DNA from: Breznakia sp. PF5-3
GTDB lineage: Bacteria; Bacillota_I; Bacilli_A; Erysipelotrichales; Erysipelotrichaceae
Direction: 5' to 3'
DNA length: 32,000 nt
Assembly: GCF_029504745.1 (NCBI RefSeq)
Contig: NZ_JAQFIQ010000007.1
Location: 30,001 to 62,000, forward strand
The notes below the pieces were generated by a model, which saw only the letters and a list, made by a program, of their open reading frames with translations, searched no databases and had not been told where the DNA came from. The position numbers were made by a program, and so were the translations under genes. Shown here in pieces: positions 1,012 to 29,102 of this stretch; position 1 is the stretch's first letter, and each line of letters begins with the position of its first letter.

Positions 1012-1015
1012 ATTA

Positions 1016-6561: not shown

Positions 6562-7089
6562 ATGAAAAAAGTTACAGAACAGGCTCAAGAGCTGTTATTA
6601 AGATCCAAAAATAAACAAATAGCGATTGATTTTACTTGTGGCAATGGAAACGATACATTCTTTTTGGCAAGTGCTTTTAAGGAAGTGCATGCTTTTGATA
6701 TTCAAGAAATGGCGATTAAAAACACCCAAGAATTATGTGCACAATTTACAAATGTAAATCTTCATTTGACATCACATAGCAACTTTGATAATTATGTAGA
6801 AACCTTTGATGCAGGTATTTTCAATCTTGGATATTTACCTCATGGAGATGAAAAGATTACAACGGATGCAATGGTTGTAATTGATACATTAGAGAAATGT
6901 TGGAAGCATCTTACAGATGGTGGCAGGATTGTATTAGTTTTATACCCAGGATTTAAATATGGTAAAAAAGAAGCAGAAATAATCGAAAAATATTGTCAAT
7001 CATTAGCAAGTAAACACTTTGATATATTGAAGGTACAGTTGTTGAACCGAAACCACGCTCCCTATATTCTTTGTATTGAAAAAAAATAA
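6562..7089 (+). CDS. Class I SAM-dependent methyltransferase, YtqB/MnmM-like (putative tRNA/rRNA methylase family)
   Basis: DFTCGNGNDTFFLA SAM-binding motif, AFDIQE, FNLGYLPHGD, C-terminal APYILCIEKK, 175 aa. No SD. TATAAT (6550-6555) lies 6 nt before the ATG. Confidence 0.75.
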   Translation: MKKVTEQAQELLLRSKNKQIAIDFTCGNGNDTFFLASAFKEVHAFDIQEMAIKNTQELCAQFTNVNLHLTSHSNFDNYVETFDAGIFNLGYLPHGDEKITTDAMVVIDTLEKCWKHLTDGGRIVLVLYPGFKYGKKEAEIIEKYCQSLASKHFDILKVQLLNRNHAPYILCIEKK

Positions 7090-7140
7090 AGCAATGAAAC
7101 TTTTTTACCATTGGTTTCGTTTCATAAGTAGAGGTAACTT

Positions 7141-7923: not shown

Positions 7924-7978
7924 TGTTATTTCATTATATGAAATTGTTTTTAATAGAAATAAGCGTATAATTTAAAGT

Positions 7979-13639: not shown

Positions 13640-14200
13640 ATGAAGAAACTTAGAATCAGGAGTGAATATGTCATTTTTATTTTGAGAATGTTTGTAATCT
13701 TCAGCGTTCTTGTTTTTGTTGTAACTACTTTTATCTTTCGAACGGTGCGAATCAATGGACAAAGTATGGAACCAACATTACAAAGCGGAGAATATGCATT
13801 TTCAAACAGATTGGCAGCAGATGAAGGGAATATCAATCGATTTGATGTAATTGTAATTGATAACATTGAAGAAGATTATGTGGTGAAAAGAGTAATTGCA
13901 CTCCCCAATGAAACCATATCTTACAAAGATGGAAAGTTATATATTAATGGTGAATGGTATGAAGAACCATTCTTAGATCAAGAATATATTGCTTTGCATA
14001 CAATGAATAATCAAATTACTTTTACGCAAAATTTTGGACCAATCACATTAGGTGAAAATGAATATTTTGTACTTGGTGATAACCGATTGAATTCAAAAGA
14101 CTCTCGGGTCGTTGGTCCAATTCCTGAAAAAGACATTGTTGCAAAAGATGTAATTGTAGTATATCCGCTAAATAGTATACGTGTAGAAAGTTCCAACTAA
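13640..14200 (+). CDS. lepB: Signal peptidase I
   Basis: N-terminal TM, catalytic Ser box GQSMEPTL, Lys box VKRVIALPNE, and box E GDNRLNSKDSR. 186 aa. Confidence 0.92.
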   Translation: MKKLRIRSEYVIFILRMFVIFSVLVFVVTTFIFRTVRINGQSMEPTLQSGEYAFSNRLAADEGNINRFDVIVIDNIEEDYVVKRVIALPNETISYKDGKLYINGEWYEEPFLDQEYIALHTMNNQITFTQNFGPITLGENEYFVLGDNRLNSKDSRVVGPIPEKDIVAKDVIVVYPLNSIRVESSN

Positions 14201-14226
14201 TTTTTTAATTATTGGAACCTTTTTTG
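14190..14226 (+). terminator. Weak terminator-like hairpin after lepB, overlapping the -35 of the next promoter
   Basis: gttccaa (14190-14196) / ttggaac (14212-14218), 15-nt AT loop, then T6 (14220-14225). The stem is short, so this is tentative. Confidence 0.35.
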
Positions 14227-14238
14227 TTTATTTCCGTC
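14214..14238 (+). promoter_or_regulatory. ECF-type promoter P1 (GGAACC-N15-CGTC) upstream of sigma gene 1
   Basis: GGAACC 14214-14219, CGTC 14235-14238. Same motif and spacing as at 20795. ECF sigma promoters classically carry GGAAC at -35 and CGT(C) at -10. It lies 30 nt upstream of ATG 14268, which fits autoregulation. Confidence 0.6.
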
Positions 14239-14267: not shown

Positions 14268-15593
14268 ATGAGCAGATTGAAAAAAGAAGAGATTCAAAAA
14301 TTTCTAGATGGAGACGATAGTGTTTTTCCTGAGATTTTTGCTGCTTATCGTAATAAGATTAATTATCTTGCGATAGAAATCTTACGAAACCAGGCAGATT
14401 GTGAGGAAGTAGTTCAAAATACGTTTATTAAAATCATTACCAAACGTAAGGATTTACGTGATGCTAGTGCTTTTAATACATGGATTTATCGAATTGCTTA
14501 CAACGACTGTATGGATATATATCGGCAAAATAAAAAGGGTAAAACAGGTATGAATAATGACTACACTCTAGAAAATTATTCTGACAACAAAGGAGAGCCA
14601 AACGATGTGGTGAGTAAAAAGGCAATTTTAGAAGCAATTCAAAGCGAAATTGATGGCCTTCCAGAGGATATGAAACAAGTGTGTTTGTTAAGATTCGTTG
14701 GTGAATGTAGCCTTGAAGAAATCTCTGAAATCATGAGTATTCCAAAAGGCACAGTAAAGAGTAGGCTAAACAGGGCAAAAGTAAAACTTCGAGAAGGGCT
14801 GGTTGATAAGCATGTGACTCCAGCAATCTATATGTCATTGTCATTTACACCTTTGGTATTTAAGTTGTATGCATCGTTAGTAAAACAACAAGAGATGCAA
14901 CCACTTGTAGAAACAAAAGTTGCTAAAGTTATTGAAAACGCAACAGGAGTAACAGCAGGAGTAACGGTCGCAAGCGGAGGAATGATTATAGGATTTGGTA
15001 GTGCAGTAATAGGAACATCTATATTATTAGCATTATTTGGCACTTATACGATTATAAATCCAATTATTGATCAAACGGCTGAAGTTGTAAAAATTGAGGA
15101 AATCAATTATTTGAAAGATCTTACAAATGAAAATTTGCAGATTGTTCTCATGTTCAGTGGAGAACCAGATGCAAAAGATATTAGTATAACATTTGTTGAT
15201 GAAAATACAACGATCGAGGCTGAATCCGTTGACAATGAAAACTACATGTTTGTTGCGAAGGCGAATGGAACATATCATGTAGAGTATGGTGGGGTAGCAC
15301 AGGATATCAAAGTTGATAACATTGACAAGCAAAGCCCTAAATTGAAAAGTTTAGAAAAGGAAGAAGGATTACTTAAGATTATAGGTAGTGATGATTTTTC
15401 TGGCATTGATTTCGATAAATCATACGTTGAAGAGGGTTCCAATAAGTTTGATTTGATCAAAATTGATGATACATCTGCATTTTTCAAAGATGCAGTTAAG
15501 AAAAAGGCAAAGCTGTATTTGTATGATAAGGTAGGAAATTACCAGGTCTATGAGATCAATGCAACAGATACAGTGAGCAATACAGATGGGTAG
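14268..15593 (+). CDS. Membrane-tethered ECF (sigma-70 family) sigma factor fused to a TM helix and an extracellular Ig-like C-terminal domain
   Basis: aa ~20-90 form sigma region 2 (EEVVQNTFIKI..AFNTWIYRIAYNDCMDIYR). aa ~125-180 form region 4 (LPEDMKQVCLLRF..SLEEISEIMSIPKGTVKSRLNRAK). The TM is GGMIIGFGSAVIGTSILLALFGTYTII. About 175 aa of ectodomain follow (NGTYHVEY..VDNIDKQSP; LYLYDKVGNYQVYEI). It is paralogous to 27790-29091. Confidence 0.8.
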   Translation: MSRLKKEEIQKFLDGDDSVFPEIFAAYRNKINYLAIEILRNQADCEEVVQNTFIKIITKRKDLRDASAFNTWIYRIAYNDCMDIYRQNKKGKTGMNNDYTLENYSDNKGEPNDVVSKKAILEAIQSEIDGLPEDMKQVCLLRFVGECSLEEISEIMSIPKGTVKSRLNRAKVKLREGLVDKHVTPAIYMSLSFTPLVFKLYASLVKQQEMQPLVETKVAKVIENATGVTAGVTVASGGMIIGFGSAVIGTSILLALFGTYTIINPIIDQTAEVVKIEEINYLKDLTNENLQIVLMFSGEPDAKDISITFVDENTTIEAESVDNENYMFVAKANGTYHVEYGGVAQDIKVDNIDKQSPKLKSLEKEEGLLKIIGSDDFSGIDFDKSYVEEGSNKFDLIKIDDTSAFFKDAVKKKAKLYLYDKVGNYQVYEINATDTVSNTDG

Positions 15594-15693
15594 TTTCATA
15601 AAATTAGGTCTATGAAACAATACACTGTATATCCATAAAGCAATTTATGGAGAAGTGAAAGATTATAAAATTAGAATGGAGGGAGTGAAAGTT

Positions 15694-18600
15694 TTGAGAC
15701 GTAAATACGTAAAAACATTAAAGATGTTTAAAAGGTGTTTTCTTACAGCACTGGCATTAGGTATTACACTTACGGCAATAAACCTGCCAAAAATGGATAT
15801 CCATGCTCAAACAGAGGATGTTCGCTATGATTTGCAAACGGAATTAAGCGAAGATAAAAAAGAACTTCGTATTGATTTATTAGCTTATGCAAATAGGAAT
15901 GATGTTGAAATAACGGCGATTGGTAACCCTGATGGGACCATCACGGATGGAGCAAAAACGTCATATGTTTCTGTAACAAATGAAACATTGACATTTGTGG
16001 TGAACTACAAAATATTAGAAGAGAAAGATGGAAAAATAAAAGAAATCTCAAAGACAAAAGAAGTTGAATATGAGGTGGATCAATTTGGTAAAGAAGAAGA
16101 GGCACAGCCTCAAGCATTAAGTGATCCATTGGCACCATTTTCATCTTTAAAAGCAAATATGAGTTTTAGAAATGCTTTTAATGTATCTCATACAAAAGAT
16201 GGGTTATACTATCTTTCTGATAATTCTATGGAATTAGGGTATCACTATAATGAATATGTGAAATTTTTGCTTAGCAAAGCACGTTGTACTACATCAAAGT
16301 ATTGGGAAGGCTGGTATGCGAAGTTTGCTGCAGTATCAAAATATAAAGTTGATTTCTCAAAAGATTTTAAAGTTACAAACGTAATATCTTCAAATCCAAC
16401 ATTATATGGAGATGGGTTCACGTTAGGATTTCAAACAGATCCAAACTTTACATATACAACAGGTAAAGGGGGTTCTATAGGAGTTTACCGTAATGGTAGT
16501 GACTATGGGGCTCGCAATGGTGTAGTATTTGAAGTTGATTATCATGATAACTCTCCAGATGGAATGTGGCATGATATAGGATTAGGTGGAAATCACTTAG
16601 CAATTCATACAACGGATGCTTATGGAAATGAATCAACTCCAGTTGCTTCTTGGTTCGGTGTAAAACACACAGGAAGTCTAACTGCATTCAATGTGACTTG
16701 GACAATTACAGATAAAGCTACAAACACTGGGACATTGACATTTACATATGGAACATACAATTTGAAATATACAAATTTCAGACCACATGAAGTATTTGGT
16801 GGGTCAGTAAACAATCCTACAGCAGCATATTTAACATATACTGGAGTAATCTTGAAAGATTATGGTTCAAATAACAAACCATTCCAAATCACAATGACAG
16901 ATTATTCTTATCTTGAAGATGAAGTAACTGCAAGTGATGGATTTATTACCCAAACTCAAGCAAAAGCTTTGGCAAACCAAAATGGATTAATTCTTTATAA
17001 CAATGCATCTGCAGTTTCTACTGCTGGAGATAGTGTTACACCTACGGTTTCAACACCTGCATGGAGCAACATTAAATCTGGTTTAGTAGGTACTTATGAT
17101 GTGACATATGCTTATGGAACAGCATCAAAAACAGTAAAATTAAGCGTAATTAAAGATGGATCAATCATTTCACCAAACAAGGATTTCTCACTTTATGCAG
17201 AAAATGCTTCCTTGTTACAAAGTGAAGCAATTGCATTAAGTTCAATGAATGATTTAGTATCTGTTCATGATGCAAGTGTAACGATGGCAAATGGAACGCT
17301 TCTTGCACCAAATGCAACAACAAGTGCTTGGTCATCAATCAAAGCTGGGGTTGTAGGAAATTACGTGATTACTTTCTATTATGGAACAGGATCAAACTAC
17401 ACAGCAAAAAACGTTACATTATCAGTTGTTGCTGATAAGAAACATGAAATATATGCAAGTGATGGATTTATTACCCAATCACAAGCTAAGGCACTTACGA
17501 GTATGCAAGGATTTATTCCTTACAACCAAGCAAAAGTAATTACTAATGAAGGTGTTACTACGGTGCCAAGTACCGTTGCTACGAACTATTGGAATGAAAT
17601 TAACACAGGAACAATCGGTTCTTATAACGTTACATATTCTTATGGATCAGGAACAGCAAGAGTATCAAAAACAGTAAAATTAAATGTTGTGAAAGATGGA
17701 ACTGTGTTCCCTCCAGATAACAGTTTTGCATTATATGCAGAAGATGGTTTTATTAAACAAAGTCAAGCAAAAGCACTTACATCAACAAGCCAATTAATAC
17801 CTTATAACAATGCGAGCGTAACATTGGCTGATGGAAGTAGTGATGTACCATTCGTTAGTTTAAATACTTGGTCAAATATTGTGAGTGGAACGATTGGTAG
17901 CTACGATATCGTATATATGTATGGTGCTGGTGCTAACCTTAAATATAAAGTTGTGAAATTAAACGTTATTGAAGATGGTGGTATTATTGCACCAGATAAG
18001 AGTTTTGCATTATATGCAGATAATGGAACGATTTCACAAACCCAAGCATCTGCACTTACAGGTACATCACAATTAATCCCTTATAACAATGCGAAAGTAA
18101 TTTTGGCGAACGGAACACGTGCAGAACCAAATGTATCTGCTCCAACGTATAGCGAAATTGTGAGTGGGGTTGTAAAGACTCATAAAGTTACATATAGTTA
18201 TGGAGTGCTTACAAACAAAGTATCTAAAGAAGTAGACTTACAATTAATTGCTGATAAGCGTCATGAAGTTCGCGCAGAAGATGGCTTCATTTATGCAACA
18301 CAAGCGAAAGCATTAACAAATCAAAGTGAATTAATTCCATTTAATAGTGCAAGTGTTATAACAAACACTGGTCAAAGTGCACAACCGGTTGTAACAACAG
18401 GAAGTTGGGCTAACATTGTAGCTGGGGTAACTGGTTCATATGATATTACTTATAGCTATGGAAGTGGAACAACACAAGGATCAAAAACAGTAGTCTTGAA
18501 TGTTGTACCAGATGGAACAATATTCCCACCAGATAAAGCATTTGCAGTATATGCAGAAGATGGTTTAATCAATGTGGAACAAGCGAAGAAGTTAACAGCA

Positions 18601-20691
18601 CAAAAAGATCTTATTCCATATAACTCAGCATATGTAATGTTGAAAAATGGAACGATTGTAGATCCAGATGTATCTACTTGGGATTGGGTAAAAATCTCAG
18701 CTGGAATTGAAGGAACATATGATGTTAACTATGGTTATACAATTATGCCGAATACGGTTCAAAAAGGTGTAAAACTTACTGTAACAAAAGGTACAACACC
18801 ACCAAGTAATTCATTCTCATTATATGCTAGAGATGGATTTGTATATGAAGATCAAGCAAAAGCATTTACTGCCCAAAAAGATATGATTCCATTCAATGAT
18901 GCTTTTGTAACATTGAAGGATGGATCAAGTGTAGATCCACAAGTTGCAACACCTCATTGGTCAGCAATTAAGGATGGAACAATTGGTTCATATCCAGTAA
19001 CATATGGTTATACAAAGGGTAGTGAATCATTATCAAGTGTTGTGAAATTGAATGTTGTAGAAAATGGTTCTACCATTTCACCAGGACAAGATTTTGCAAT
19101 TTATGCTAAGAATGGAATTATTCAACAATCATCTGCACAAGCATTGATTAGCTTGAATGATTTAATTCCTTACAATGGTGCAAAAGTTACCCTTAAAGAT
19201 GGTAGTGAAGCTACGCCAACGGTAACAACAGCAGATTGGACAGCAATTCGTGCAGGAGTATTGGGTACATATTCAATTACCTATAGTTATGGTAGTGGTA
19301 CGAATACAGCATCTAAAGTGGTAACACTAAGAGTAGTACCAGATGGAAATCCTTCACCAGAAGGAGACTTCATCTTATATGCTTCAAATGGATTCATTTC
19401 AAAAGAGCAGGCGATGGCTATTACAAGTCAAAAAGATTTGATTCCATATAACAAAGCATCCGTTATCAAGGACGATGGTAGCGATGCAGAACCATCTGTA
19501 TCAACAACTAGTTATGCAGATATTAAAGCTGGTAAATTAGGTGTTTACAATGTAACATATCGTTATGGATTTGGTACAAACTTAGTTTCAAAAACAGTGA
19601 AACTTACAGTTCATGATGGTACTCCTTCACCAGGAGGAAATTATGTATTAAATGCTAAAGATGGTTTAATTTCTAAAAGCGAAGCAAAAGCATTAAGTTC
19701 AACAGCAGACTTAATTGCAATTAACGACGCATCTGTTTGGATGAATGATGGATCAACTGATGTTCCAGTGGTTACAATGCTACCACTTAATTGGTTATCT
19801 TTAAATGAAGGTATTATCAATAGCTATCCAGTTCTTTATAGTTATGGAAGTGGTAGTGATTATACACAAAAAACAGTTCGTGTAACAGTGTATGATGATG
19901 GTGGTATCATATCTCCAAATAAAGACTTTGTATTAAATGCTAAGAATGCAGTATTAACACAAAGTGAAGCAAAAACTTTAACAAGTGCAAGTGACTTAAC
20001 CGTTTATAATGATGCTCTTGTTAGTTATGCAAATGGTAACAAAGCAATTCCAAATACAACAGCTACAGAATTTGCTTCTATTAAAAGTGGTGTAGTAGGA
20101 ACTTACAATGTAACATATGATTATGGTACAGGATCTAATTACACAGAAAAAGCAGTGAAATTAGTAGTTGTAAAGGATGGCGCATTGATTGCACCAGATC
20201 GTAGTTTTGCGATTTATGCAGAAGATGTAACATTGAATCAAGATGAGGCACGCGCATTGACAAACAAAAATCAAATTACAAGTTTGGCACACGCGATGGT
20301 CTATATTGCAGATGGAACAACAGCAACACCTACGTTGTCACTTCCAGATTGGGATGATATCAAAGCAGGTATTTCAAATGATTATGCTGCTGATTTCACA
20401 TATCAAGATGTAACAGGTAGTATTAATATAAAAGTTACGCAAGAATATGTAACAAGATATCTATTTGACTATGATAATAACAAACGTATTGATGTTATTG
20501 ATTATGCTTATTTTGCAAGTTACTATAGTGGTGCAACACCAATGTCTCCATTGGCTTGGGCATTAACAGATTACCCACCAGGAGATGGACGTATCGATGT
20601 TATCGATTTAGCACACTTTAAACGTCATTACAGCGATTCGACACTTCCATTGGTTGAAGTAGAAGTACCAGCAGATTGGCGCTTAGAATAA
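15694..20691 (+). CDS. Giant secreted adhesin-like protein: signal peptide, N-terminal beta module, L-type lectin-like domain, 13 Ig-like (Big_3/DUF5011-like) repeats and a C-terminal dockerin-like module
   Basis: The likely start is TTG 15694, 11 nt after GGAGG (15678-15682); the listed GTG 15655 has no SD. Signal peptide RRKYVKTLKMFKRCFLTALALGITLTAINL..IHA/QT. Lectin-like blocks DGFTLGFQ, GGSIGVY, NGVVFEVDYHDN, NHLAIHT. Repeat signature DGFIxQxQAKALT..LIPYN.A.V...G....P.V....W..I..G..G(S/T)Y.VTY.YG.G....K.V.L.V. The C-terminus has two Ca-loop-like segments, DYDNNKRIDVID and PGDGRIDVID. Confidence 0.85.
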   Translation: MRRKYVKTLKMFKRCFLTALALGITLTAINLPKMDIHAQTEDVRYDLQTELSEDKKELRIDLLAYANRNDVEITAIGNPDGTITDGAKTSYVSVTNETLTFVVNYKILEEKDGKIKEISKTKEVEYEVDQFGKEEEAQPQALSDPLAPFSSLKANMSFRNAFNVSHTKDGLYYLSDNSMELGYHYNEYVKFLLSKARCTTSKYWEGWYAKFAAVSKYKVDFSKDFKVTNVISSNPTLYGDGFTLGFQTDPNFTYTTGKGGSIGVYRNGSDYGARNGVVFEVDYHDNSPDGMWHDIGLGGNHLAIHTTDAYGNESTPVASWFGVKHTGSLTAFNVTWTITDKATNTGTLTFTYGTYNLKYTNFRPHEVFGGSVNNPTAAYLTYTGVILKDYGSNNKPFQITMTDYSYLEDEVTASDGFITQTQAKALANQNGLILYNNASAVSTAGDSVTPTVSTPAWSNIKSGLVGTYDVTYAYGTASKTVKLSVIKDGSIISPNKDFSLYAENASLLQSEAIALSSMNDLVSVHDASVTMANGTLLAPNATTSAWSSIKAGVVGNYVITFYYGTGSNYTAKNVTLSVVADKKHEIYASDGFITQSQAKALTSMQGFIPYNQAKVITNEGVTTVPSTVATNYWNEINTGTIGSYNVTYSYGSGTARVSKTVKLNVVKDGTVFPPDNSFALYAEDGFIKQSQAKALTSTSQLIPYNNASVTLADGSSDVPFVSLNTWSNIVSGTIGSYDIVYMYGAGANLKYKVVKLNVIEDGGIIAPDKSFALYADNGTISQTQASALTGTSQLIPYNNAKVILANGTRAEPNVSAPTYSEIVSGVVKTHKVTYSYGVLTNKVSKEVDLQLIADKRHEVRAEDGFIYATQAKALTNQSELIPFNSASVITNTGQSAQPVVTTGSWANIVAGVTGSYDITYSYGSGTTQGSKTVVLNVVPDGTIFPPDKAFAVYAEDGLINVEQAKKLTAQKDLIPYNSAYVMLKNGTIVDPDVSTWDWVKISAGIEGTYDVNYGYTIMPNTVQKGVKLTVTKGTTPPSNSFSLYARDGFVYEDQAKAFTAQKDMIPFNDAFVTLKDGSSVDPQVATPHWSAIKDGTIGSYPVTYGYTKGSESLSSVVKLNVVENGSTISPGQDFAIYAKNGIIQQSSAQALISLNDLIPYNGAKVTLKDGSEATPTVTTADWTAIRAGVLGTYSITYSYGSGTNTASKVVTLRVVPDGNPSPEGDFILYASNGFISKEQAMAITSQKDLIPYNKASVIKDDGSDAEPSVSTTSYADIKAGKLGVYNVTYRYGFGTNLVSKTVKLTVHDGTPSPGGNYVLNAKDGLISKSEAKALSSTADLIAINDASVWMNDGSTDVPVVTMLPLNWLSLNEGIINSYPVLYSYGSGSDYTQKTVRVTVYDDGGIISPNKDFVLNAKNAVLTQSEAKTLTSASDLTVYNDALVSYANGNKAIPNTTATEFASIKSGVVGTYNVTYDYGTGSNYTEKAVKLVVVKDGALIAPDRSFAIYAEDVTLNQDEARALTNKNQITSLAHAMVYIADGTTATPTLSLPDWDDIKAGISNDYAADFTYQDVTGSINIKVTQEYVTRYLFDYDNNKRIDVIDYAYFASYYSGATPMSPLAWALTDYPPGDGRIDVIDLAHFKRHYSDSTLPLVEVEVPADWRLE
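16921..20445 (+). repeat. 13 tandem, diverged ~255-285 nt (~88-90 aa) coding repeats (Ig-like modules)
   Basis: I counted 13 units from the recurring (L/I/V)YA(E/D/K/S)(D/N)GF..(Q/E)AKAL .. G(S/T)Y(D/N)VTY.YG motifs. Short identical DNA strings recur, e.g. aaaacagtaaaattaa at ~17131 and ~17671. Confidence 0.85.
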
Positions 20692-20744: not shown

Positions 20745-20775
20745 AAAGAGGATGCTAACGCATTCTCTTTTTTTA
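20745..20775 (+). terminator. Strong rho-independent terminator after the giant adhesin gene
   Basis: aaagaggatgc (20745-20755) / gcattctcttt (20760-20770), 11 bp with one G-U. The loop is taac and the stem runs into ttttttt. Confidence 0.8.
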
Positions 20776-20794: not shown

Positions 20795-20819
20795 GGAACC
20801 TTTTGCGCTGGATTCCGTC
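20795..20819 (+). promoter_or_regulatory. ECF-type promoter P3 (GGAACC-N15-CGTC) upstream of the cohesin-like gene operon
   Basis: GGAACC 20795-20800, CGTC 20816-20819. The flank TTCCGTCGATAT compares with P1 TTCCGTCAATAT. It lies ~60 nt upstream of ATG 20881 and just downstream of terminator 20745-20775. Confidence 0.6.
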
Positions 20820-20880: not shown

Positions 20881-22413
20881 ATGAAATTGAAAATAAAGAG
20901 TAATAAATTCAAGATCCTGGCAGTTGTAGTTTTGGCTGCTATTGTGGCAATCCCAAGTATGTTGGCAGCAAAGCCTATGGATACGAAAGCGGATGAAGTA
21001 GATGGCGAACCTACTTTTGATATTGCACCAATACATCAGGTAACTAGAAATGATGGAGGAGGAGCATATGGAACACATGCTCAACAAAGCTATGTAGAAG
21101 ATGGTGTTCAATATTATCGTAATGGCGATATTATTGAAGTAAGCATCATGCTTCCTAAAGGACACGGTGCGACCGTATTCCAAGATGTTGTAAAATATGA
21201 CGAAGAGAAATTAACATTAATTTCACCTTTCACAGATATTAAAGCAACATTATCTAAAAACTATTTAGATAAAAGATGGTCAACAGAAGTGTCAAACCCA
21301 AATGCAGATACTTCACGTATTTTAGTATTTGGATCAGCAGCAGATTTTACAACTGGTGCTGAATACCAAGGTGGTAGTGTTGCTAGAATGTATTTCCGCG
21401 TTAATAATAATGTGGAATCTGATGCAGGTACAGCAATTACATTTGAATTCCCAGAATTCCAAACCGCTGGATATTCAAATGGAAAAGTTGTATATACACA
21501 CAGAGGATATGATGCAAATAACGATGCAGCTACTGCATTCTATCAAGCAGAACCAGTTACAATATATGCAAAAACACCTTCAAAAACAGTAAATGCACCA
21601 ACCCTTAACTTGAAGAATAGTTCAGCAACTATTTATGAAGGAGATTTATTTGATCCAGCTTCATACATAAGCAATGCTTCTTGTGAGGTTGATAAATCAG
21701 TAAGCAAAGACACTGTTGATATTAGTGAAGGAACTGGAGTTTATACAAAACATCAACCAGCAGCTGGAACTTATGTTTATAAATACAGCGTAACAAGTAG
21801 TACAGGAAAATCAACAGAGAAACAATTGTCTTTAAAAGTAACAGCAAGAACATATACAGTTGCTTCTATCGATGTAGATTCTAAAAAAATATCATTGCCT
21901 GTTGGAACAGCAAGTTCTGATTTAGAAGCAATGATTAATGAGATGAAAAAAGAAGACTTTAATGTAACTATTACTTGTAATGATGGTTCTAAATTTGTTG
22001 TTCCAGGAAAAGTATTGAATGGAAAAACAGATACTTACCGTATTGATGAAAACGATAAGTTATTAGCACAAACATTTAATGTTAACTTTACATTAGCATT
22101 GCCACTTGTTTCTTATGGAACAGATGGATCAAGAATTGTAACGCCATACAATGGAAGTTCAAGTTTTGTAAGTAATGTTGGAAATGGAAGAGCGGATGCA
22201 AAAGTTCCTGTTATTATCGGTACAGGTAATTCAGGAGGAAACAATACTGGAGGAAATTCTTCAGGAAAACCATCTACTGCACCTACAGCAGGAAGTAGTA
22301 ATGGTAGTGGTTCTGCAGCTTCAACAGGGGATACAACAAATGTAACATTCCTTGCAGTATTAGCTATTTTATCAGCAGGATTTATCGTACGTTCAAAATT
22401 TAAAAAACAATAA
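20881..22413 (+). CDS. Cell-surface anchoring protein: signal peptide, cohesin-like module, Ig-like domains, G/S/N/T linker and a cell-wall-sorting-like C-terminus
   Basis: Start ATG 20881 after agaggagg; the listed 20752 extension crosses a terminator and a promoter. Signal peptide KFKILAVVVLAAIVAIPSMLAAKP. Cohesin-like region ~21004-21575 (GDIIEVSIMLP..VFQDVVKYDEEKLTLIS..RILVFG..GGSVARMYFRVNN..GTAITFEF). Big_3-like SSATIYEGDLFDP..GTYVYKYSV. Tail GSGSAASTGDTTNVTFLAVLAILSAGFIVRSKFKKQ. Confidence 0.8.
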   Translation: MKLKIKSNKFKILAVVVLAAIVAIPSMLAAKPMDTKADEVDGEPTFDIAPIHQVTRNDGGGAYGTHAQQSYVEDGVQYYRNGDIIEVSIMLPKGHGATVFQDVVKYDEEKLTLISPFTDIKATLSKNYLDKRWSTEVSNPNADTSRILVFGSAADFTTGAEYQGGSVARMYFRVNNNVESDAGTAITFEFPEFQTAGYSNGKVVYTHRGYDANNDAATAFYQAEPVTIYAKTPSKTVNAPTLNLKNSSATIYEGDLFDPASYISNASCEVDKSVSKDTVDISEGTGVYTKHQPAAGTYVYKYSVTSSTGKSTEKQLSLKVTARTYTVASIDVDSKKISLPVGTASSDLEAMINEMKKEDFNVTITCNDGSKFVVPGKVLNGKTDTYRIDENDKLLAQTFNVNFTLALPLVSYGTDGSRIVTPYNGSSSFVSNVGNGRADAKVPVIIGTGNSGGNNTGGNSSGKPSTAPTAGSSNGSGSAASTGDTTNVTFLAVLAILSAGFIVRSKFKKQ

Positions 22414-22473
22414 AAGAAAAGACAGATGTAGAAAAGGTGTTTTATACATCTTTTCTACCATGTAGGAGGGAAA

Positions 22474-25400
22474 ATGAAAAAATTCTTTAAATTATTTATC
22501 GCTGCATTTATAGCAGTAACATGTATTGTTCCTTTACAAAGTATTTCAGCGGCTTATGGAGATCCAGTAGAGCCAATTTACCAAATTTCACGTAATGATG
22601 GTGGAGGGAAATATGGAACACATAAGAACCCTGATTATAAAGAGGGAACTACACAATATTACCGTGATGGAGATATTATCGAGGTAGATTTCAGATTACC
22701 AGCTGATTCAGGAGTTCAAATTTATAACCAAGTTATTAAATATGACTCAGATCAGTTAGATTTATTATCATCAGATACAGATATTACAGGTACTTTATCA
22801 TCTACTTTCACAAGTAAGAATTGGTCAAGTACAACAGCAAGAGACAATAATGACAATGAAAAAATCTTAGTTTATGGGGGAAGTAATAACTTTGGAAACC
22901 CTGATACAAAAGATTATACAGGTGGAACGATTGCTAAGGTTTACTTCAAAGTAAAAAATGGAGTTGAATCAACAGCAGGAACACCAATTACATTTGAATT
23001 TATGAATTTTCAAACAGCAGAGTTTAAAAATAACAAAGTTTCTTATACACATATAGGATATGATCCTAACAACGATGCAGGAACGGTATACTATACAGCT
23101 CCTTCACAAACCATTCAAGTAAAGAAACCAAGTGTAACATTTAGTGCTAATGATGGATTTATTACACAAAGCCAAGCAAAAGCATTAAATACAAAGAATG
23201 ATTTAAAAGCTTATAATGATGTAAGTGCAAAATTAACTGATGGCACTAATATTGATGTGACAACAGATGCACAAAACTTCAATGATATTAAAGCTGGAAA
23301 AATTGGTTCTTATGATGTGACATATGGATATACACATGATGGAAATTCAGATAGTAAAAAAGTAAAATTAAATGTAGTATCTGATGATGCAGTTATCTCA
23401 CCAGAGAAAAATTTTGCTTTATCAGCAGAACATGCATTTATTACTGCATCGGATGCGAAAAAGTTAACGAATAAAACACAATTGATTTCACTTAACAATG
23501 CAAAAGTAACATTGAAAAATGGTACTAACGCTACACCTAATGTAGATGCACCTGCATTTGCTTCTATTCAAGCAGGAAGTGTTGGAACTTACGAAGTTAC
23601 TTATAGTTATGGAAGTGGGTCTGATACAGCAAGTAAAAAAGTGTTTGTAACGGTTGTGAAAGATGGTTCGGTGATTTCACCTAACAAAGATTTCTCACTT
23701 TATGCAAAACATGGATTTATTAAGAATACAGAAGCTAAAAATTTAACAAGTAGAACTCAATTGATTCCATATAACAATGCAGAAGTTACACTTGTAAATG
23801 GAGATAAAAGAGATCCTAGACCAACAGTAACAGCTGCTGAATGGTTATCAATTACTTCTGGTATTAAAGGAAGTTACAATGTTCTTTATGAATATGGTGA
23901 TGGAGCAAATGAAACAAGCTTGGTTGTTAAAATAACAGTCATTGATGAAAACGATCCAATCTCACCAAACAAAGAAGCAAGTCTATCTGCACAAGATGTT
24001 GAGCTTAGTGAAACAGAAGCAAAAGCGCTTACATCAAAGAATGATTTGATTGCTTTAAATAAAGCGTCTGTTACATTATCTGACGGTTCTGTGGCAACAC
24101 CAACGATAGCAAGTGTTGATTATGCTAGTATAGTATCGGGTAAAATTGGAATTTATCCAATTACATATACATATGGTAGTGGTCAAGGAAAAGTTGATAA
24201 GACAGTAAATGTAATCGTTAAAGAAGATAAAAAACATGTAATTACATATGAAGATAAGATTATTACTGTTGATCAAGCAAAAGCATTATCTAGTAAAGAT
24301 GATCTTAGAGTGGTAAACAATGTTCAAGTAACAGCAATTGATGGATCACATCCAAATGCAGTTGTTGATGCACCAACATGGAGTTCTATTAAAGATGGTA
24401 AATTAGGAACATACACAGTTACTTATAGTTATGGATACGGAGATAAATTAGTATCTGTAAATGCAAAAGTTACAATCGTTCCAAATGGTTCAGAAATTGA
24501 TGATAACGCAAGTTTATATGCGCAAAATGGATTCCTTGAACAATCATCTGCAAAAGCACTAGTAACTAGAAATGATTTAATTCCTTATAATGCAGCGTCA
24601 GTTACATTATTAAGTGGTGGAACAGCAACGCCAACGGTTGGAATGAGCGCAGGAGATTGGTACTTATTGTCGGCAGGAGAATTAGGTTCATATGATGTTG
24701 TTTATTCATATGCAAGTTTAAGCAAACGTGTTCTTGCAACAGTAATTAAAGATGGATCTATCGTTTCTGAAGATAAGACAGCAAGTTTATATGCAGAAAA
24801 TGCATTTATTGAATCAAGCAATGCTAAGAAATTAGCAAATAAAGAAGCACTTAGAGCATATAACAAAGCGTCTGTAACATTAATTGATGGTAGAACAGCG
24901 AACGCAACAGTAGATGTTGCAGCTGCTGATTGGTTAGCAATCCAACAAGGAACAGTTGGAGCATATGACATACTATATACATATGGAAGTGGAGATGGAC
25001 AAGTTAGCAAGCGTGTAAAAATTGTTGTTATCGATGATGATCCAATCATTTCTCAAGATGGGAAAGTTGCATTGAATGCAGTTGATGGTGAAATTGCGGA
25101 TACGGATGCAAAGAAAGTTACAAGCAAAGAAGACTTGATTCCATATAACAGTGCAAAAGTTACATTGGAAGATGGAACTATCGCTAAATTGGATGTAACA
25201 ATATCTACAAGTAGCTTAAATGCTATTAAAGCAGGTACGTTAGGTACTTATACTGTTACATACTCTTATGGAAGTGTTGGAAGCCCAAGTTATGTAAGTA
25301 AAACAGTAAAATTAGAAGTTGTAATTAAAACAAGAGCAATTCATATGTTTGACTATGATGATAACAAACGTATTGATGTTATTGACTTAGCACATTTCAA

Positions 25401-25569
25401 TAGAATTTATTCTAATTCTATGAATGTTTCTGCATATGATTTAATGTTAACTGACTTCAACAAAGATAAACGTGTTGATGTTATTGATTTAACACAGTTT
25501 AAATATTACTATTCTAATTCATTGATTCTTCCACCAACAGTGGATGTACCAGTTGAAATAATTCCATAA
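22474..25569 (+). CDS. Secreted adaptor-like protein: signal peptide, cohesin-like module, 8 Ig-like repeats and a C-terminal dockerin-like module
   Basis: Signal peptide MKKFFKLFIAAFIAVTCIVPLQSISA/AYG. Cohesin-like region ~22555-23133 (GDIIEVDFRLPADSGVQIYNQVIKYDSDQLDLLS..KILVYGG..GGTIAKVYFKVKNG..GTPITFEF). Eight repeats of the same family as in 15694-20691. Dockerin-like DYDDNKRIDVIDLAHFNRIY ... DFNKDKRVDVIDLTQFKYYY. Confidence 0.85.
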   Translation: MKKFFKLFIAAFIAVTCIVPLQSISAAYGDPVEPIYQISRNDGGGKYGTHKNPDYKEGTTQYYRDGDIIEVDFRLPADSGVQIYNQVIKYDSDQLDLLSSDTDITGTLSSTFTSKNWSSTTARDNNDNEKILVYGGSNNFGNPDTKDYTGGTIAKVYFKVKNGVESTAGTPITFEFMNFQTAEFKNNKVSYTHIGYDPNNDAGTVYYTAPSQTIQVKKPSVTFSANDGFITQSQAKALNTKNDLKAYNDVSAKLTDGTNIDVTTDAQNFNDIKAGKIGSYDVTYGYTHDGNSDSKKVKLNVVSDDAVISPEKNFALSAEHAFITASDAKKLTNKTQLISLNNAKVTLKNGTNATPNVDAPAFASIQAGSVGTYEVTYSYGSGSDTASKKVFVTVVKDGSVISPNKDFSLYAKHGFIKNTEAKNLTSRTQLIPYNNAEVTLVNGDKRDPRPTVTAAEWLSITSGIKGSYNVLYEYGDGANETSLVVKITVIDENDPISPNKEASLSAQDVELSETEAKALTSKNDLIALNKASVTLSDGSVATPTIASVDYASIVSGKIGIYPITYTYGSGQGKVDKTVNVIVKEDKKHVITYEDKIITVDQAKALSSKDDLRVVNNVQVTAIDGSHPNAVVDAPTWSSIKDGKLGTYTVTYSYGYGDKLVSVNAKVTIVPNGSEIDDNASLYAQNGFLEQSSAKALVTRNDLIPYNAASVTLLSGGTATPTVGMSAGDWYLLSAGELGSYDVVYSYASLSKRVLATVIKDGSIVSEDKTASLYAENAFIESSNAKKLANKEALRAYNKASVTLIDGRTANATVDVAAADWLAIQQGTVGAYDILYTYGSGDGQVSKRVKIVVIDDDPIISQDGKVALNAVDGEIADTDAKKVTSKEDLIPYNSAKVTLEDGTIAKLDVTISTSSLNAIKAGTLGTYTVTYSYGSVGSPSYVSKTVKLEVVIKTRAIHMFDYDDNKRIDVIDLAHFNRIYSNSMNVSAYDLMLTDFNKDKRVDVIDLTQFKYYYSNSLILPPTVDVPVEIIP
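23140..25325 (+). repeat. 8 tandem diverged ~270 nt coding repeats (Ig-like modules), same family as 16921-20445
   Basis: Units start at FSANDGFITQSQAKAL, LSAEHAFITASDAKKL, LYAKHGFIKNTEAKNL, LSAQDVELSETEAKAL, ITYEDKIITVDQAKAL, LYAQNGFLEQSSAKAL, LYAENAFIESSNAKKL and LNAVDGEIADTDAKKV. Confidence 0.85.
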
Positions 25570-25598: not shown

Positions 25599-26675
25599 AT
25601 GAGAAAACTAAAAAAACAAATAGCTATTCTTACAGTATTGATAATTGCATTCATTACTTGTGCTAGCCCTTTACAGGCTGTGCATTATTCACAAGTGCCA
25701 AGTAATAATGGGGGACACCGTTTGCAAAATTCAATTGCATATGTAGGAGGTGGAAGAGCACCATTTACAGAAAATGGAGTGACGTATTATAATGCAGGAA
25801 ATGTGATCGAGCTAACGGTCACATTACCTGCTAATACATACGCAGTATCTTTGCAAGAAATCATTACCTATGATTTAAATCAAGTAGATTTGGTAACAAG
25901 TTTTAATGATATTCGTCAAACCTTTGGGCAATCCCTTTTGAATGAAGGATGGGCACAAGATGTATTTAAGATGAATGGAAACAATAATCAAATTTTACTT
26001 TCTGCAGCAGGAAGTGATTGGACTAATCACTCAAGTATTGCTGGTGGAGTTGTAGGAAAGATACGTTTTCGAATCAAAGAACAAACAACAACTAATGTTG
26101 GAACAAATATCAACATTAATTTTGTTTATCAAATTGCAGGAGCAAAACCAAATGGAAAAGGGTTGGCATATATTCATGCTGGATATGATCCAAGCAATGA
26201 AGGCGGTACCTATCAAGTATCTGCACCAACGATTTCAATTGCGGCTCATAAGATACCATCTGCACCAACGACACCTACCAATCCTGAAAAACCTACTGAT
26301 CCAGTCGTGGATTATCATCCAAGTGTTGTGATCGATAAGGAAATCAGTGAAAGTAAGAAAAAAGAGATTGCGGCAATTACAGCGAAACGGGATTATTCAT
26401 TCGCAAAATCGAATGATTTTATGAATGGAAAGAATTCGTATCGAAATATTGCGAAAATGTTGATTGATCAAATGGTAAAGACAAAAGATAAAATCAAATA
26501 TCAAACATATGAGTTTAAAGATCAATATTTAGATATAAAGGCTAAGAAGACAATTGTGAAAACTACTTGTTATACACATTATCTTTATATCGGGATGAGT
26601 TTTGTAGTAATTTTTGTAACATATGGTTATAAAAAATATTTAGAAGCGAATCGTAAAGTGAAATGGAGGTCTTAA
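25599..26675 (+). CDS. Membrane-anchored cohesin-like protein: signal peptide, cohesin-like module, Pro/Thr linker and a C-terminal TM helix
   Basis: Start ATG 25599 after gaagggaagg. Signal peptide KQIAILTVLIIAFITCASPLQA/VH. Cohesin-like region ~25680-26253 (GNVIELTVTLPAN..LQEIITYDLNQVDLVTS..QILLSAAG..GGVVGKIRFRIKE..GTNININF). Linker PSAPTTPTNPEKPTDP. C-terminal TM YLYIGMSFVVIFVTYGY followed by KKYLEANRK. Confidence 0.75.
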   Translation: MRKLKKQIAILTVLIIAFITCASPLQAVHYSQVPSNNGGHRLQNSIAYVGGGRAPFTENGVTYYNAGNVIELTVTLPANTYAVSLQEIITYDLNQVDLVTSFNDIRQTFGQSLLNEGWAQDVFKMNGNNNQILLSAAGSDWTNHSSIAGGVVGKIRFRIKEQTTTNVGTNININFVYQIAGAKPNGKGLAYIHAGYDPSNEGGTYQVSAPTISIAAHKIPSAPTTPTNPEKPTDPVVDYHPSVVIDKEISESKKKEIAAITAKRDYSFAKSNDFMNGKNSYRNIAKMLIDQMVKTKDKIKYQTYEFKDQYLDIKAKKTIVKTTCYTHYLYIGMSFVVIFVTYGYKKYLEANRKVKWRS

Positions 26676-26832: not shown

Positions 26833-26858
26833 GGAACCTTTTTCGGATTATAAGCGTC
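26833..26858 (+). promoter_or_regulatory. ECF-type promoter motif P2 (GGAACC-N16-CGTC) with no adjacent gene
   Basis: GGAACC 26833-26838, CGTC 26855-26858. It shares GGAACCTTTTT with P1. The next CDS starts 273 nt downstream. Confidence 0.45.
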
Positions 26859-27130: not shown

Positions 27131-27592
27131 ATGAAAAAAATTATAATTAGCTCAATTTGCTTTGTTGCATTACTAGCTGGATGTTCTTCTGGTAGCAAGG
27201 GAAGTGAAAAAGTTTGTACAATGACACAAGGAGCTAGTGATGAATTAGAAGAAAAAATTACCATTTCTTATGATGGAGATACAGTAACAACCATTGTTTC
27301 AAAGACTACCATTGATGTAGAAAAAACGAAAACAGGTACAACAATGGAGGATTTAGAAAAGCTTGCAAAAGATGTTGATAAAGTTTATAACGCTATCAAG
27401 GGTGTAAAGTATACATATGAAAGCAAAGATAAGAAATTCTATGAAACGATAACTGTAGATATCAAGGAAGAGAATATGGAAGAATTACAAAACAAGGGAA
27501 TGATTAATATGTATGTTGATGAAGATGGAAAAATCTTAAAAGCTGACAAATTGATTGATTTCTTGAAAGATTCAGGAATGAAGTGTAAATAA
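27131..27592 (+). CDS. Lipoprotein, YehR/DUF1307-like
   Basis: Lipobox LLAGC (MKKIIISSICFVALLAGCSSG). ~150 aa with an alternating beta/alpha pattern (ITISYDGDTVTTIV..; YNAIKGVKYTYESKDKKFYETITVD; ..KADKLIDFLKDSGMKCK), typical of DUF1307 lipoproteins as I recall them. Confidence 0.6.
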   Translation: MKKIIISSICFVALLAGCSSGSKGSEKVCTMTQGASDELEEKITISYDGDTVTTIVSKTTIDVEKTKTGTTMEDLEKLAKDVDKVYNAIKGVKYTYESKDKKFYETITVDIKEENMEELQNKGMINMYVDEDGKILKADKLIDFLKDSGMKCK

Positions 27593-27739: not shown

Positions 27740-27789
27740 AATTATATGATAGGTTATATTTTTGTCATGTATTGAAAGGGGGCGATGCT

Positions 27790-29091
27790 ATGATGAGAAA
27801 AGTGGATGTGAAATATGTAGAAGCACTTCAACGCGGTGATTTGGAGGCTTTTAATGTAATTTACGATTATTATAAGAATTCCATTTATTTTTTTGTACTT
27901 AAATTTGTTGGTAATCAACAAGATGTTGAGGAAGTAGTACAAGATACGTTTGTCAATGCATATCGAAATATCAATATGTTGAAATCTTTGGATGCTTTTC
28001 ATTCATGGCTTTTTAGTATTGCTTACAGCCAAGCACAAATGGTATATCGAAGAAAATCACATGGTAATCTGATTGATGGGAATCTAGAAGAAATTGCTAA
28101 GGTTGAAGATTCACAAAAAAAAGAAATTGAAAATAAAGATATTCTTGGAGCTGTAGAAGATGAATTGTATAAATTGCCTGCAAAATATTCACAAGTAGGA
28201 CAATTGAAATACTTTGAAGAACTTTCGGTAAAAGAAATTGCAGAGGTCTTAAGTATTCCAGTCGGAACGGTTAAAACTAGATTAATGCGAATTAGAAAGA
28301 TGATATCTCCTGGTTTAGAAAAAAGAGGATATACACCAAAGAAATATTTTGGGTTTGCATTTACACCGCTTCTTTACCAAGCCTTTACAGCAATGATTAA
28401 CAATCATACATTGTCTGCTGAGCAATCAGTGTCAACGTTCAATACGATTCAAGAGAAGATTACTACTGGAGGAGGAACGGCCTTGTTGAGTGGTGTTTCT
28501 GCGACAGGTGCTATGGCATCTGCAGGTGTTAGTGCAGTAAATAAAGCAATGATTGGAGCAACTCTTATGGCAAGTGCAGTAGGTGGTGTTGTCATTTATC
28601 AAAACTTACATACGGAAGCTGCAGTAATTGAAGATATTGTATATTATCAAGATCTAACAAATAAGGATATTGAAGTTGCGGTTCTTTGCAATAAAGAAAT
28701 TGGTAGTGCGGATATTGATGTGTCGTATAACGAAACACCAGTCGTATTTCGTATAGAGGATAATAAGGTATTGTTTGATGCCAAAGATAATGGTGAATAT
28801 AAGATTAGTTTAAATGATGAAAATCAAGTCCTTACCATTGATAATATTGATAAGGAAGTTCCATTGATTCATAATGTGGCATATGATAACGATTTACTAA
28901 AAATTGAATTTGATGATGCAAATGCAATAGATTATCAAAAATCATATGTAAACTTTAATGAAAAATCATATACAATTTCAAAGCAAGGAACCGTTCATGA
29001 AAAATTGGATGGTGAGTTTGAAGTTGTGTTGTATGACTTGGCAGGGAATAAAGTCGGCTATAAGATAGACTTAAAGACATACAAAAATTAG
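27790..29091 (+). CDS. Second membrane-tethered ECF sigma factor fused to a TM segment and an extracellular Ig-like domain (paralogue of 14268-15593)
   Basis: Start ATG 27790 after aaaggggg. Region 2 EEVVQDTFVNAY..AFHSWLFSIAYSQAQMVYR. Region 4 LPAKYSQVGQLKYFEELSVKEIAEVLSIPVGTVKTRLMRIRK. Conserved FTPLLY linker, Ala/Gly-rich TM AMIGATLMASAVGGVVIY. Ectodomain YYQDLTNKDIEV.., NGEYKISL..IDNIDKEVP, VVLYDLAGNKVGYKI. Confidence 0.8.
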   Translation: MMRKVDVKYVEALQRGDLEAFNVIYDYYKNSIYFFVLKFVGNQQDVEEVVQDTFVNAYRNINMLKSLDAFHSWLFSIAYSQAQMVYRRKSHGNLIDGNLEEIAKVEDSQKKEIENKDILGAVEDELYKLPAKYSQVGQLKYFEELSVKEIAEVLSIPVGTVKTRLMRIRKMISPGLEKRGYTPKKYFGFAFTPLLYQAFTAMINNHTLSAEQSVSTFNTIQEKITTGGGTALLSGVSATGAMASAGVSAVNKAMIGATLMASAVGGVVIYQNLHTEAAVIEDIVYYQDLTNKDIEVAVLCNKEIGSADIDVSYNETPVVFRIEDNKVLFDAKDNGEYKISLNDENQVLTIDNIDKEVPLIHNVAYDNDLLKIEFDDANAIDYQKSYVNFNEKSYTISKQGTVHEKLDGEFEVVLYDLAGNKVGYKIDLKTYKN

Positions 29092-29102
29092 AGGGGTAAA
29101 AG

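Follow-up and report, generated by a model that had tools for sequence, protein, structure and literature searches.

What does a secreted protein do that carries a cohesin at one end, a dockerin at the other and eight immunoglobulin (Ig)-like repeats between them? The question is raised by protein C, encoded in a stretch of 32,000 nucleotides from the gut bacterium Breznakia sp. PF5-3 (contig NZ_JAQFIQ010000007.1, positions 30,001 to 62,000), which was analyzed as a whole and is referred to here as the window. The genus Breznakia is part of the Erysipelotrichaceae. Pairs of cohesin and dockerin are best known for holding together enzyme complexes such as cellulosomes and amylosomes. In the window, these modules occur in what looks like a closed set of four proteins in which no enzyme family was detected: two anchors (B and D), a stalk (C) and a lectin-headed fibre (A). 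Judging from the sequences, we give a probability of about 0.5 to the reading of C as a scaffoldin without catalytic activity, an adaptor or spacer, within a small and self-contained cohesin-dockerin system for the display of adhesins rather than enzymes. The window has a G+C content of ~33%, and its large genes all lie on the forward strand. The gene for protein C is divided as follows.

22474..25569, + strand: open reading frame of protein C, 1031 residues, ATG start, AGGAGGG ribosome-binding site directly 5'
22474..22551, + strand: signal peptide, residues 1–26, with a basic N terminus, a hydrophobic core and SISA/AY, read from the sequence without a predictor
22552..23130, + strand: divergent cohesin module, residues 27–219, by profile matches and the fold match of an AlphaFold2 model
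23131..25326, + strand: eight tandem Ig-like repeats, Big_3-related, ~92 residues each, residues 220–951
25327..25569, + strand: dockerin with a conserved PPxVxVP tail, residues 952–1031, followed by the stop codon

Protein C is 100% identical to M2475_000589 of Breznakia sp. PF5-3, which is annotated as 'hypothetical protein'. Its N terminus, MKKFFKLFIAAFIAVTCIVPLQSISA followed by AYG, reads as a Sec signal peptide. A preliminary description of the locus had placed an N-terminal cohesin-like module, eight Ig-like repeats and a C-terminal dockerin-like module in one secreted protein, and profiles and structural models agree with this layout. C itself lacks a membrane or wall anchor and would hence need a partner to be retained on the cell.

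The N-terminal module belongs to a cohesin subfamily that escapes Pfam. Pfam Cohesin (PF00963) gave no match to protein C at E ≤ 1, NCBIfam was likewise blank for the N-terminal module, and the paralogue D (longest open reading frame, from 25575) reached 16.1 bits with Pfam Cohesin against a cut-off of 24.1 (E = 0.014). A word-index search with the N-terminal module alone retrieved nothing, and the whole of protein C as a single-sequence query against the PDB gave nothing significant. A profile built from the three paralogous cohesins (the B, C and D modules) found chance-level matches only in the PDB. When the same profile was searched against 1.84 billion representative proteins, 19 close relatives came first (E < 1e-24), followed by one RHS-repeat protein, which is likely an artefact, and then by the Pfam Cohesin proteins P0021, P0022 and P0024 (E = 2e-6 to 8e-4). 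The profile of the family, with 21 sequences, reached solved structures, with ScaB of Acetivibrio cellulolyticus first (3l8q, E = 1.1e-6) and 3fnk, 3ghp, 4u3s and 4ums next.

The AlphaFold2 model of the C cohesin module has a predicted local distance difference test (pLDDT) score of 94.1 and a predicted template modeling (pTM) score of 0.89. A Foldseek search of the PDB with this model gave cohesins almost throughout among the top 40 matches (E = 1.2e-6 to 3e-4, probability 1.00). The best of them is the cohesin of the Ruminococcus flavefaciens adaptor ScaC (5lxv, E = 1.2e-6), with 12–13% sequence identity in the structural alignment, and further matches include cohesins of types I, II and III as well as non-cellulosomal cohesins of Clostridium perfringens and Archaeoglobus. 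Template modeling (TM) scores, normalized to the target, are 0.5–0.7 for most of the top matches. With 193 residues the module is ~40 residues longer than classical cohesins, and since the alignment with 3l8q begins at profile position 37, much of the extra length is N-terminal. In the model, the TM-scores and the length of 193 residues show a cohesin core plus additional elements. In the model the module has the nine-stranded β jelly-roll of the cohesin fold, it stays below the Pfam gathering score, and at the level of profile and predicted fold it is a cohesin by homology. The cohesin of B is 50% identical to that of C, and the cohesin of D 28–32%, according to the alignment used. B-type and C-type cohesins share the conserved N-terminal motif SRNDGGGxYGTH.

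The C-terminal module of protein C contains two 22-residue segments, DYDDNKRIDVIDLAHFNRIY and DFNKDKRVDVIDLTQFKYYY, in which the loop D-x-D/N-x-N/D-x3-D-x2-D can be read from the sequence, with the Ca2+ ligands at positions 1, 3, 5, 9 and 12. Segment 1 is made up of DYDDNKRIDVID and LAHFNRIY, and segment 2 of DFNKDKRVDVID and LTQFKYYY. In the dockerin alignment most of the Ca2+-ligand positions are conserved, and three Asp residues are invariant. As a single-sequence query against the PDB, the C dockerin gave nothing significant. The family profile matched the solved dockerins 8x39 (E = 8.9e-11), Ruminococcus bromii Amy16 (9qf9, E = 6e-6) and 2vn5_B (E = 1.9e-5), with weaker matches to 4fl4_A, 4dh2_B and 1daq, down to E = 3e-4. 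A model of repeat 8 together with the dockerin (pLDDT 95.4, pTM 0.75) contains helices at residues 113–124, 131–137 and 147–158. The helical part superimposes on the cellulosomal double dockerin 8x39_A with a probability of 0.98 and a root mean square deviation of 2.4 Å over 60 columns, at 27% identity. The module therefore combines two EF-hand-like segments, each a Ca2+ loop followed by a helix, with a dockerin fold in the model. The last repeat abuts the dockerin with no linker between them, and the junction is predicted to be rigid. The model also has strands in the PPxVxVP tail and in the segment directly before the first Ca2+ loop, an arrangement that would recall X-module-dockerin dyads.

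The middle of the protein is built from repeats that a hidden Markov model (HMM) finds eight times in C (each at E = 1e-33 to 1e-42), 13 times in A, and in neither B nor D. The eight repeats of C are 30–50% identical in pairs, and Pfam Big_3 (PF07523) scores 29.8 bits on C, above its cut-off of 21.2. The model of repeat 8 gave weak Foldseek matches (E = 1e-3 to 1e-1) to Ig-like domains of a chitinase, InlK, ZmpB and the Sap S-layer protein; the structures 4mb3, 4l3a (InlK) and 7jrl among them are weak matches as well, yet consistent (E = 1e-3 to 6e-2). The repeat number is eight in all 13 full-length C-type proteins counted (those of the window, of loci L001–L007, L009 and L010, and P0017, P0028 and P0035), including paralogues with cohesins that are 36–38% identical to that of C. 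A shorter C-type entry, P0003 (760 residues), contains five, and the sequence of P0012 is partial. In A-type proteins the number varies: 4, 7 or 13. The constant number in C-type proteins suggests a length constraint, as for a spacer of defined reach.

The possible partners of C are encoded on either side of it.

15655..20691, + strand: protein A, a secreted fibre whose L-type-lectin-like head is followed by 13 repeats of the C type and a C-terminal dockerin, by HMMs and Pfam
20881..22413, + strand: protein B, with a signal peptide, a cohesin (residues ~44–235 from the real start; cohesin HMM, 258 bits), an uncharacterised middle region and, at the C terminus, TGDTTN, a hydrophobic helix and a basic tail
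25599..26675, + strand: protein D, with a signal peptide, a distant cohesin (residues ~36–220 from the real start; cohesin HMM, 219 bits), a linker rich in Pro and Thr and, at the very C terminus, a hydrophobic helix

The dockerin of A occupies residues ~1598–1678 (window positions 20446–20688) and scores 97 bits with the dockerin HMM. Its second Ca2+ loop is atypical (DYPPGDGRIDVID), with one inserted residue and with Pro in place of the usual ligands 1 and 3. The A protein of L001 shares the atypical loop (DALPADGRIDVND), and the other orthologues are canonical. The head of A matches Pfam Lectin_L-type_dom at E = 1.8e-7 and 31.7 bits, under the cut-off of 78.3, and it is from this match that the term lectin fibre derives. 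Neither the single sequence of the head nor its profile found a match in the PDB. The N terminus of A also gave a partial match to the Listeria LCP model NF053816 (E = 4.8e-17). Heads of A-type proteins vary among the cassettes: five share the lectin-like head of the window protein, and those of L003 and of a Thomasclavelia metagenome-assembled genome (MAG) gave no Pfam match.

The longest open reading frame of B, from 20752, begins inside a hairpin at 20745–20770, so that the real start is at 20881, in agreement with the orthologue P0004. For D the real start is 25599, as opposed to 25575 for the longest open reading frame, and P0001 is identical from 25599 onwards. The C terminus of B (22270–22413) runs from AASTGDTTN through the hydrophobic helix to KFKKQ, and T-G/A-D is kept in the orthologues. 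The LPXTG_anchor model TIGR01167 scores 12.9 bits there, against a cut-off of 15.9. This C terminus may act as a sortase signal of a non-canonical kind, or it may simply anchor B in the membrane. D may be a second anchor, nearer the membrane. The preliminary description had named the products starting at 20881 and 25599 as anchors and had counted at least 21 Ig modules in a combined stalk. Both starts are right, both proteins carry a cohesin of the same family, and the repeat HMM gives the same sum, eight in C and 13 in A.

A genome profile scan with a 6-sequence alignment led to two loci, and ten complete cassettes were compared in all: those of the window, L001–L007, L009 and L010. They come from Breznakia sp. 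PF5-3, a Breznakia MAG, Breznakia pachnodae DSM 16784, the Thomasclavelia MAG, a GenBank assembly and metagenome assemblies; Breznakia and Thomasclavelia are both Erysipelotrichales. In six-frame HMM scans the count is the same in each of the ten, two dockerins and three cohesins and no more, and the order is A ... B-C-D. C alone combines a cohesin and a dockerin in one protein, again in 10 of 10, and A and C are the only dockerin proteins within 10 kb of each cassette. Pfam and NCBIfam detected no catalytic domain in A–D and the lipoprotein of the window, nor in the three A heads scanned. The genome of Breznakia sp. PF5-3 encodes at least three paralogous C-type proteins.

Which dockerin fits which cohesin was approached through positions 10 and 11 of the dockerin segments. 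The preliminary description had pointed out a Val-Ile pair at these positions in all four dockerin segments of the locus, with which the sequences agree, and had proposed a single shared specificity. In six of the ten cassettes, positions 10–11 are aliphatic in the A as well as in the C dockerin. Two further cassettes have matched non-aliphatic residues, L003 with S-V/M-V in both dockerins and L007 with I/V and a small residue in both, followed by D-K after position 12. A and C match in part in L005 and are clearly mismatched in L001. Paralogous cassettes differ at these positions (V-I; S-V/M-V; S-Y), as may be expected for insulated cognate sets. Such cassettes within one genome differ at recognition positions and may be kept apart. 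Protein engineering would gain small, orthogonal pairs from the system.

Positions 17–18 separate the two dockerins. In A-type dockerins they are [A/E/T]-S in segment 1 and [K/N]-R in segment 2 (K-Y in L001); in C-type dockerins they are [K/N/R]-[R/K] in segment 1 and [Q/K]-Y in segment 2. The difference between the types is conserved across the orthologues with lectin heads, and the dockerins of A and C are thus not interchangeable copies. Segment 1 of C resembles segment 2 of A, a hint that the two dockerins may dock in opposite orientations or differ in their preferences. Together, the fixed eight repeats and the type-specific positions 17–18 argue against free promiscuity. The proposal of a single specificity is supported by the covariation of the A and C dockerins and by the class match at positions 10–11 in most cassettes, but not by positions 17–18. 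The preliminary interpretation is supported in part: its modules, its adaptor comparison, its anchors and its stalk arithmetic stand, and its argument from positions 10–11 is incomplete.

Covariation between modules was measured over the ten cassettes (45 pairs) as a partial correlation controlled for the identity of the C repeats, with Mantel permutation. Among the dockerin-cohesin pairs, that of the C dockerin with the B cohesin is strongest (partial r = 0.60, p = 0.001). The C dockerin with the cohesin of C itself gives 0.38 (p = 0.06) and with that of D 0.32 (p = 0.07). For the A dockerin, partial r is ~0.43 with each of the B, C and D cohesins (p ~0.02). The two dockerins co-vary at 0.59 (p = 0.005), and the cohesins of B and C at 0.68 (p = 0.0008). 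The values are weak evidence in favor of C docking on B, and they suggest a common specificity group in which the dockerins of A and C face the cohesins of B and C. A comparison of the window with L001 gives a three-taxon pattern: the A dockerin (63% identity) and the C cohesin (64%) are close, and the C dockerin (39%) and the B cohesin (52%) have both drifted.

The model that is best supported by these data is an ordered, enzyme-free display in which anchor B holds stalk C and stalk C holds the lectin-headed fibre A. The extracytoplasmic function (ECF) sigma factor of the cassette would turn on the sigma-A, B-C-D and lipoprotein genes, and Sec would export all four structural proteins. B would then be held on the cell by its C-terminal anchor, and D would reside in the membrane. 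The Ca2+-dependent C-terminal dockerin of C would plug into the cohesin of B, and the eight rigid Ig-like repeats would set the N-terminal cohesin of C at a fixed distance from the cell. There it would capture the dockerin of A, whose 13 repeats end in a lectin-like head predicted to bind glycans. The data show the folds and homology of the modules, their census, the gene order, the promoter motifs and the covariation; the binding pairs, the order B-C-A, the way in which B is anchored and the ligand of A are all inferred. If the model is true, plug-and-socket modules would set the reach of the adhesin and permit head swapping: the heads vary, and the dockerins match.

Several observations weigh against this model. 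The C dockerin reaches 18.2 bits with Pfam Dockerin_1 (PF00404), under the cut-off of 22.9; four tested orthologues pass it (P0002 with 30.5 bits, P0003 with 23.0, P0005 with 25.2 and P0017 with 26.6). The TGDTTN of B lacks the LP of an LPXTG motif. Repeat identity is an imperfect control for the covariation, and the cassettes are few and related. The A dockerin co-varies equally with the cohesins of B, C and D, so that its partner is not singled out. Since the A and C dockerins are alike at positions 10–11 and the B and C cohesins co-vary, there may be one shared specificity that leaves the order B-C-A unenforced.

Among known systems, C can be compared most closely with ScaC of R. flavefaciens, an adaptor with one cohesin and one dockerin whose dockerin binds other scaffoldins and whose cohesin binds a further set of proteins (PMC5429695). 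The preliminary comparison with cellulosomal adaptors is right for this type. Like ScaC, C has one cohesin and one dockerin in a secreted, non-catalytic chain, and it thus has the composition of an adaptor scaffoldin, with at least one cohesin, at least one dockerin and no catalytic module; the ScaC cohesin is also the best structural match. The adaptor or extender reading of C is therefore plausible from its sequence. ScaC shifts specificity and recruits hemicellulases, and its cohesin ignores dockerins of its own group. The system of C would have an adhesin fibre as cargo, and it has eight Ig-like repeats between the modules and two look-alike dockerins.

A single cohesin on a surface protein, as in B, is also found in ScaE, the cell-surface protein of R. 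flavefaciens (PMC5429695). The fold matches of the C cohesin include that of ScaE (2zf9). ScaE has a sortase signal, and CttA, a non-enzymatic binding protein, is held on it by a dockerin; B and A would work as a pair much as ScaE and CttA do. In that case the binding protein sits directly on the anchor, whereas the cassette would have the intermediate stalk protein C, and the signal of B is TGDTTN, not LPXTG.

Cohesins and dockerins outside cellulose degradation offer further parallels. Structures from the GH84 toxin complexes of C. perfringens (2jh2, 2o4e and 2w1n) and from Archaeoglobus fulgidus (2xdh) are all among the fold matches of the C cohesin. As in these cases, the modules of the cassette would serve outside cellulose degradation; unlike in the cassette, the modules of C. 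perfringens and A. fulgidus pair enzymes or toxins one to one. Non-cellulosomal cohesins and dockerins reportedly occur across life, as Peer et al. are said to have described in 2009 in FEMS Microbiol Lett. To our knowledge, neither an anchor-stalk-adhesin arrangement nor an ECF-controlled cassette has been described for such systems, and none was found in the literature searched. The literature search likewise returned no specific account of a cohesin-dockerin system in Erysipelotrichaceae, none of one that serves as an adhesin scaffold, and no description of the cohesin subfamily. Unlike in a cellulosome or an amylosome, no enzyme cargo was found, the dockerin proteins within 10 kb being A and C. 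At the level of profile and fold, the parts are of the known cohesin, dockerin and Big_3 families; their probable enzyme-free use as an adhesin stalk was not found described.

As a working analogy only, the assembly may be likened to the sortase-assembled pili of Gram-positive bacteria, with B as the anchored base, C as the repeated Ig-like shaft and A as the lectin-like tip. In contrast to those pili, the subunits would be joined non-covalently by cohesin and dockerin, no sortase gene was found among the cassette genes scanned, and the cassette is not a member of the pilus family. It appears to us doubtful, if conceivable, that the cassette builds a non-covalent pilus-like fibre with B as the base, C as the shaft (a polymer or a stack of defined number), lectin-headed A as the tip and the ECF sigma factor as the switch. 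If true, this would be a third assembly route besides sortase pili and the chaperone-usher or type IV systems, and the first cohesin-dockerin system with the fibre itself, not an enzyme complex, as its product.

In one alternative to the ordered display, C would form a head-to-tail, non-covalent, pilus-like polymer whose dockerins bind both the cohesin of B and, along the chain, that of the neighboring C molecule. The base would then be B and the shaft, of variable length, C; A, which has a dockerin and no cohesin, would be the tip and chain terminator. We consider this unlikely, both for the polymer and for the roles that it assigns. The Val-Ile pairs in all four dockerin segments are in its favor, as are the covariation of the two dockerins (0.59, p = 0.005) and of the B and C cohesins (0.68, p = 0.0008). 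Because the latter are 50% identical, a C dockerin that fits the cohesin of B may also fit that of C. The helix regions of the A and C dockerins of L003 match at 11–12 of 14 positions and are thus nearly identical. There is precedent in the R. bromii amylase Amy4, the dockerin of which recognizes its own cohesin and leads to multimerisation (PMC4611034). Like Amy4, C carries both modules; unlike this GH13 amylase of an enzyme complex, C is non-catalytic and has a long repeat stalk. The covariation of the C dockerin with the C cohesin (0.38, p = 0.06) is, however, weaker than with the B cohesin (0.60, p = 0.001), and a strict count of eight repeats would be unexpected if polymerisation set the filament length. 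Polymerisation is the less likely reading because of this fixed number and the weaker covariation, and eight repeats fit a spacer of fixed length better than a polymer of variable length. The conserved difference between A-type and C-type dockerins at positions 17–18 also speaks against it, as do type-specific residues in which the B and C cohesins differ; these lie in strands that, by prediction, make up the 8-3-6-5 binding face (the strand mapping is inferred).

The equal covariation of the A dockerin with the B and D cohesins and with that of C would fit C as a parallel receptor. In this arrangement A and C would both plug into B and D, and the distal cohesin of C would be a raised site for dockerin proteins encoded elsewhere, or a link between cells. 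An orphan A-type adhesin would fit such a role. One is encoded in L008 of the Thomasclavelia MAG, outside the cassette of that MAG, and its dockerin has the same signature, D-[IV]-x-D-K, as the cassette L007; the three or more paralogous C-type proteins of Breznakia sp. PF5-3 would fit as well. We nevertheless judge this arrangement to be quite improbable. There are just two dockerins within 10 kb of every cassette, and a search for further proteins of the C dockerin family returned one fragment only, by a word-index search that is weak for a 79-residue query. The differences of paralogous cassettes at positions 10–11 point to insulation, not to sharing.

That the modules are structural relics that no longer pair, and that C is just a long Ig-repeat protein, secreted or on the surface, with end domains that serve other purposes, is very improbable. 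On the side of this reading, the cohesin is unseen by Pfam, the C dockerin is under its Pfam cut-off, and the A dockerin has a second Ca2+ loop with an inserted residue and without the usual first two ligands. Against it, all ten cassettes have kept the gene order and the set of two dockerins and three cohesins, the Ca2+ ligands are mostly conserved, the modules co-vary above the repeat background, and C, without its own anchor, needs a partner on the cell.

Further genes, promoter motifs and hairpins lie around the structural genes.

13640..14200, + strand: signal peptidase I, the first conserved cassette gene (Peptidase_S26, E = 1.2e-43; TIGR02227, E = 1.7e-43)
14214..14238, + strand: ECF-type promoter motif GGAACCTTTT-N11-CGTC upstream of the sigma gene, by motif scan
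14268..15593, + strand: ECF sigma factor (Sigma70_r2 and r4_2, E = 1e-11 to 1e-13; TIGR02937, 94.8 bits)
20745..20770, + strand: terminator-like hairpin and T-run directly after A, an 11-bp stem followed by TTTTTTACATTT, by consensus scan only
20795..20819, + strand: ECF-type promoter motif upstream of B, by motif scan
22422..22463, + strand: stable RNA hairpin between B and C, directly 5' of the ribosome-binding site of C (dG –17.9 kcal/mol, z –4.6)
26833..26858, + strand: third ECF-type promoter motif, upstream of the lipoprotein gene, by motif scan
27131..27592, + strand: DUF1307 lipoprotein, the last conserved cassette gene (Pfam DUF1307, E = 2e-10)

The motif GGAACCTTTT-N11/12-CGTC, which is of the ECF –35/–10 type, has three matches in the window against 0 expected from 100 shuffles. 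Its –35-like element recurs at corresponding places in L001 and L002, before the sigma gene and before B in both; in L001 it occurs as TGGAACCTTTT at 14287, upstream of the lipoprotein gene. The motif at 20795 probably drives B-C-D, where the intergenic gaps are 60 nucleotides between B and C and 29 between C and D. From the positions of the three motifs, the cassette sigma factor would drive the sigma-A, B-C-D and lipoprotein genes. A scan for sigma-70-like promoters was uninformative, with 51 sites in the window and 73 in shuffles. None of 200 shuffles was as stable as the hairpin between B and C, and L002, L003 and L006 have a related hairpin, which L001 and L004 lack. It may set the ratio of B to C or stabilize the transcript.

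A homologue of the signal peptidase occupies the equivalent place in L001, L002, L004, L006 and L007, and the DUF1307 gene follows D in L004, L006, L007 and L009; in L001–L003 an open reading frame of 150–152 residues is found there. The ECF sigma factor has a C-terminal extension, read from the translation as a hydrophobic stretch followed by ~170 residues. A resemblance of this tail to the N-terminal domain of A, as in a cargo-sensing device, was considered and dropped (BLASTP, E = 5.9).

The surroundings of the cassette vary between loci. In L004 a Na+/H+ exchanger gene (6946–8229) is inserted between A and B, from which it follows that A and the B-C-D unit are separable; this fits separate promoters. 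The streptococcal FCT loci contain a signal peptidase gene, SipA/LepA, that may be compared with that of the cassette. In the paralogous cassette L003, genes for FctA-type pilins (1–3076) separate the sigma gene from that of the S26 signal peptidase, so that a locus resembling those of sortase pili directly adjoins a cohesin-dockerin cassette. The orphan A-type adhesin of L008 (445–5331), outside the cassette L007, has 13 repeats and may share the cohesins of that cassette, as its dockerin signature would allow. Downstream of the lipoprotein gene, the window contains a second unit (27772–32000). It begins with an ECF sigma factor that has a similar long C-terminal extension (27772–29091), continues with a Flg_new-repeat protein that has a hydrophobic C terminus (29103–30272), and ends with a surface protein with leucine-rich and Ig-like repeats, which starts at 30269 and runs past the end of the window.

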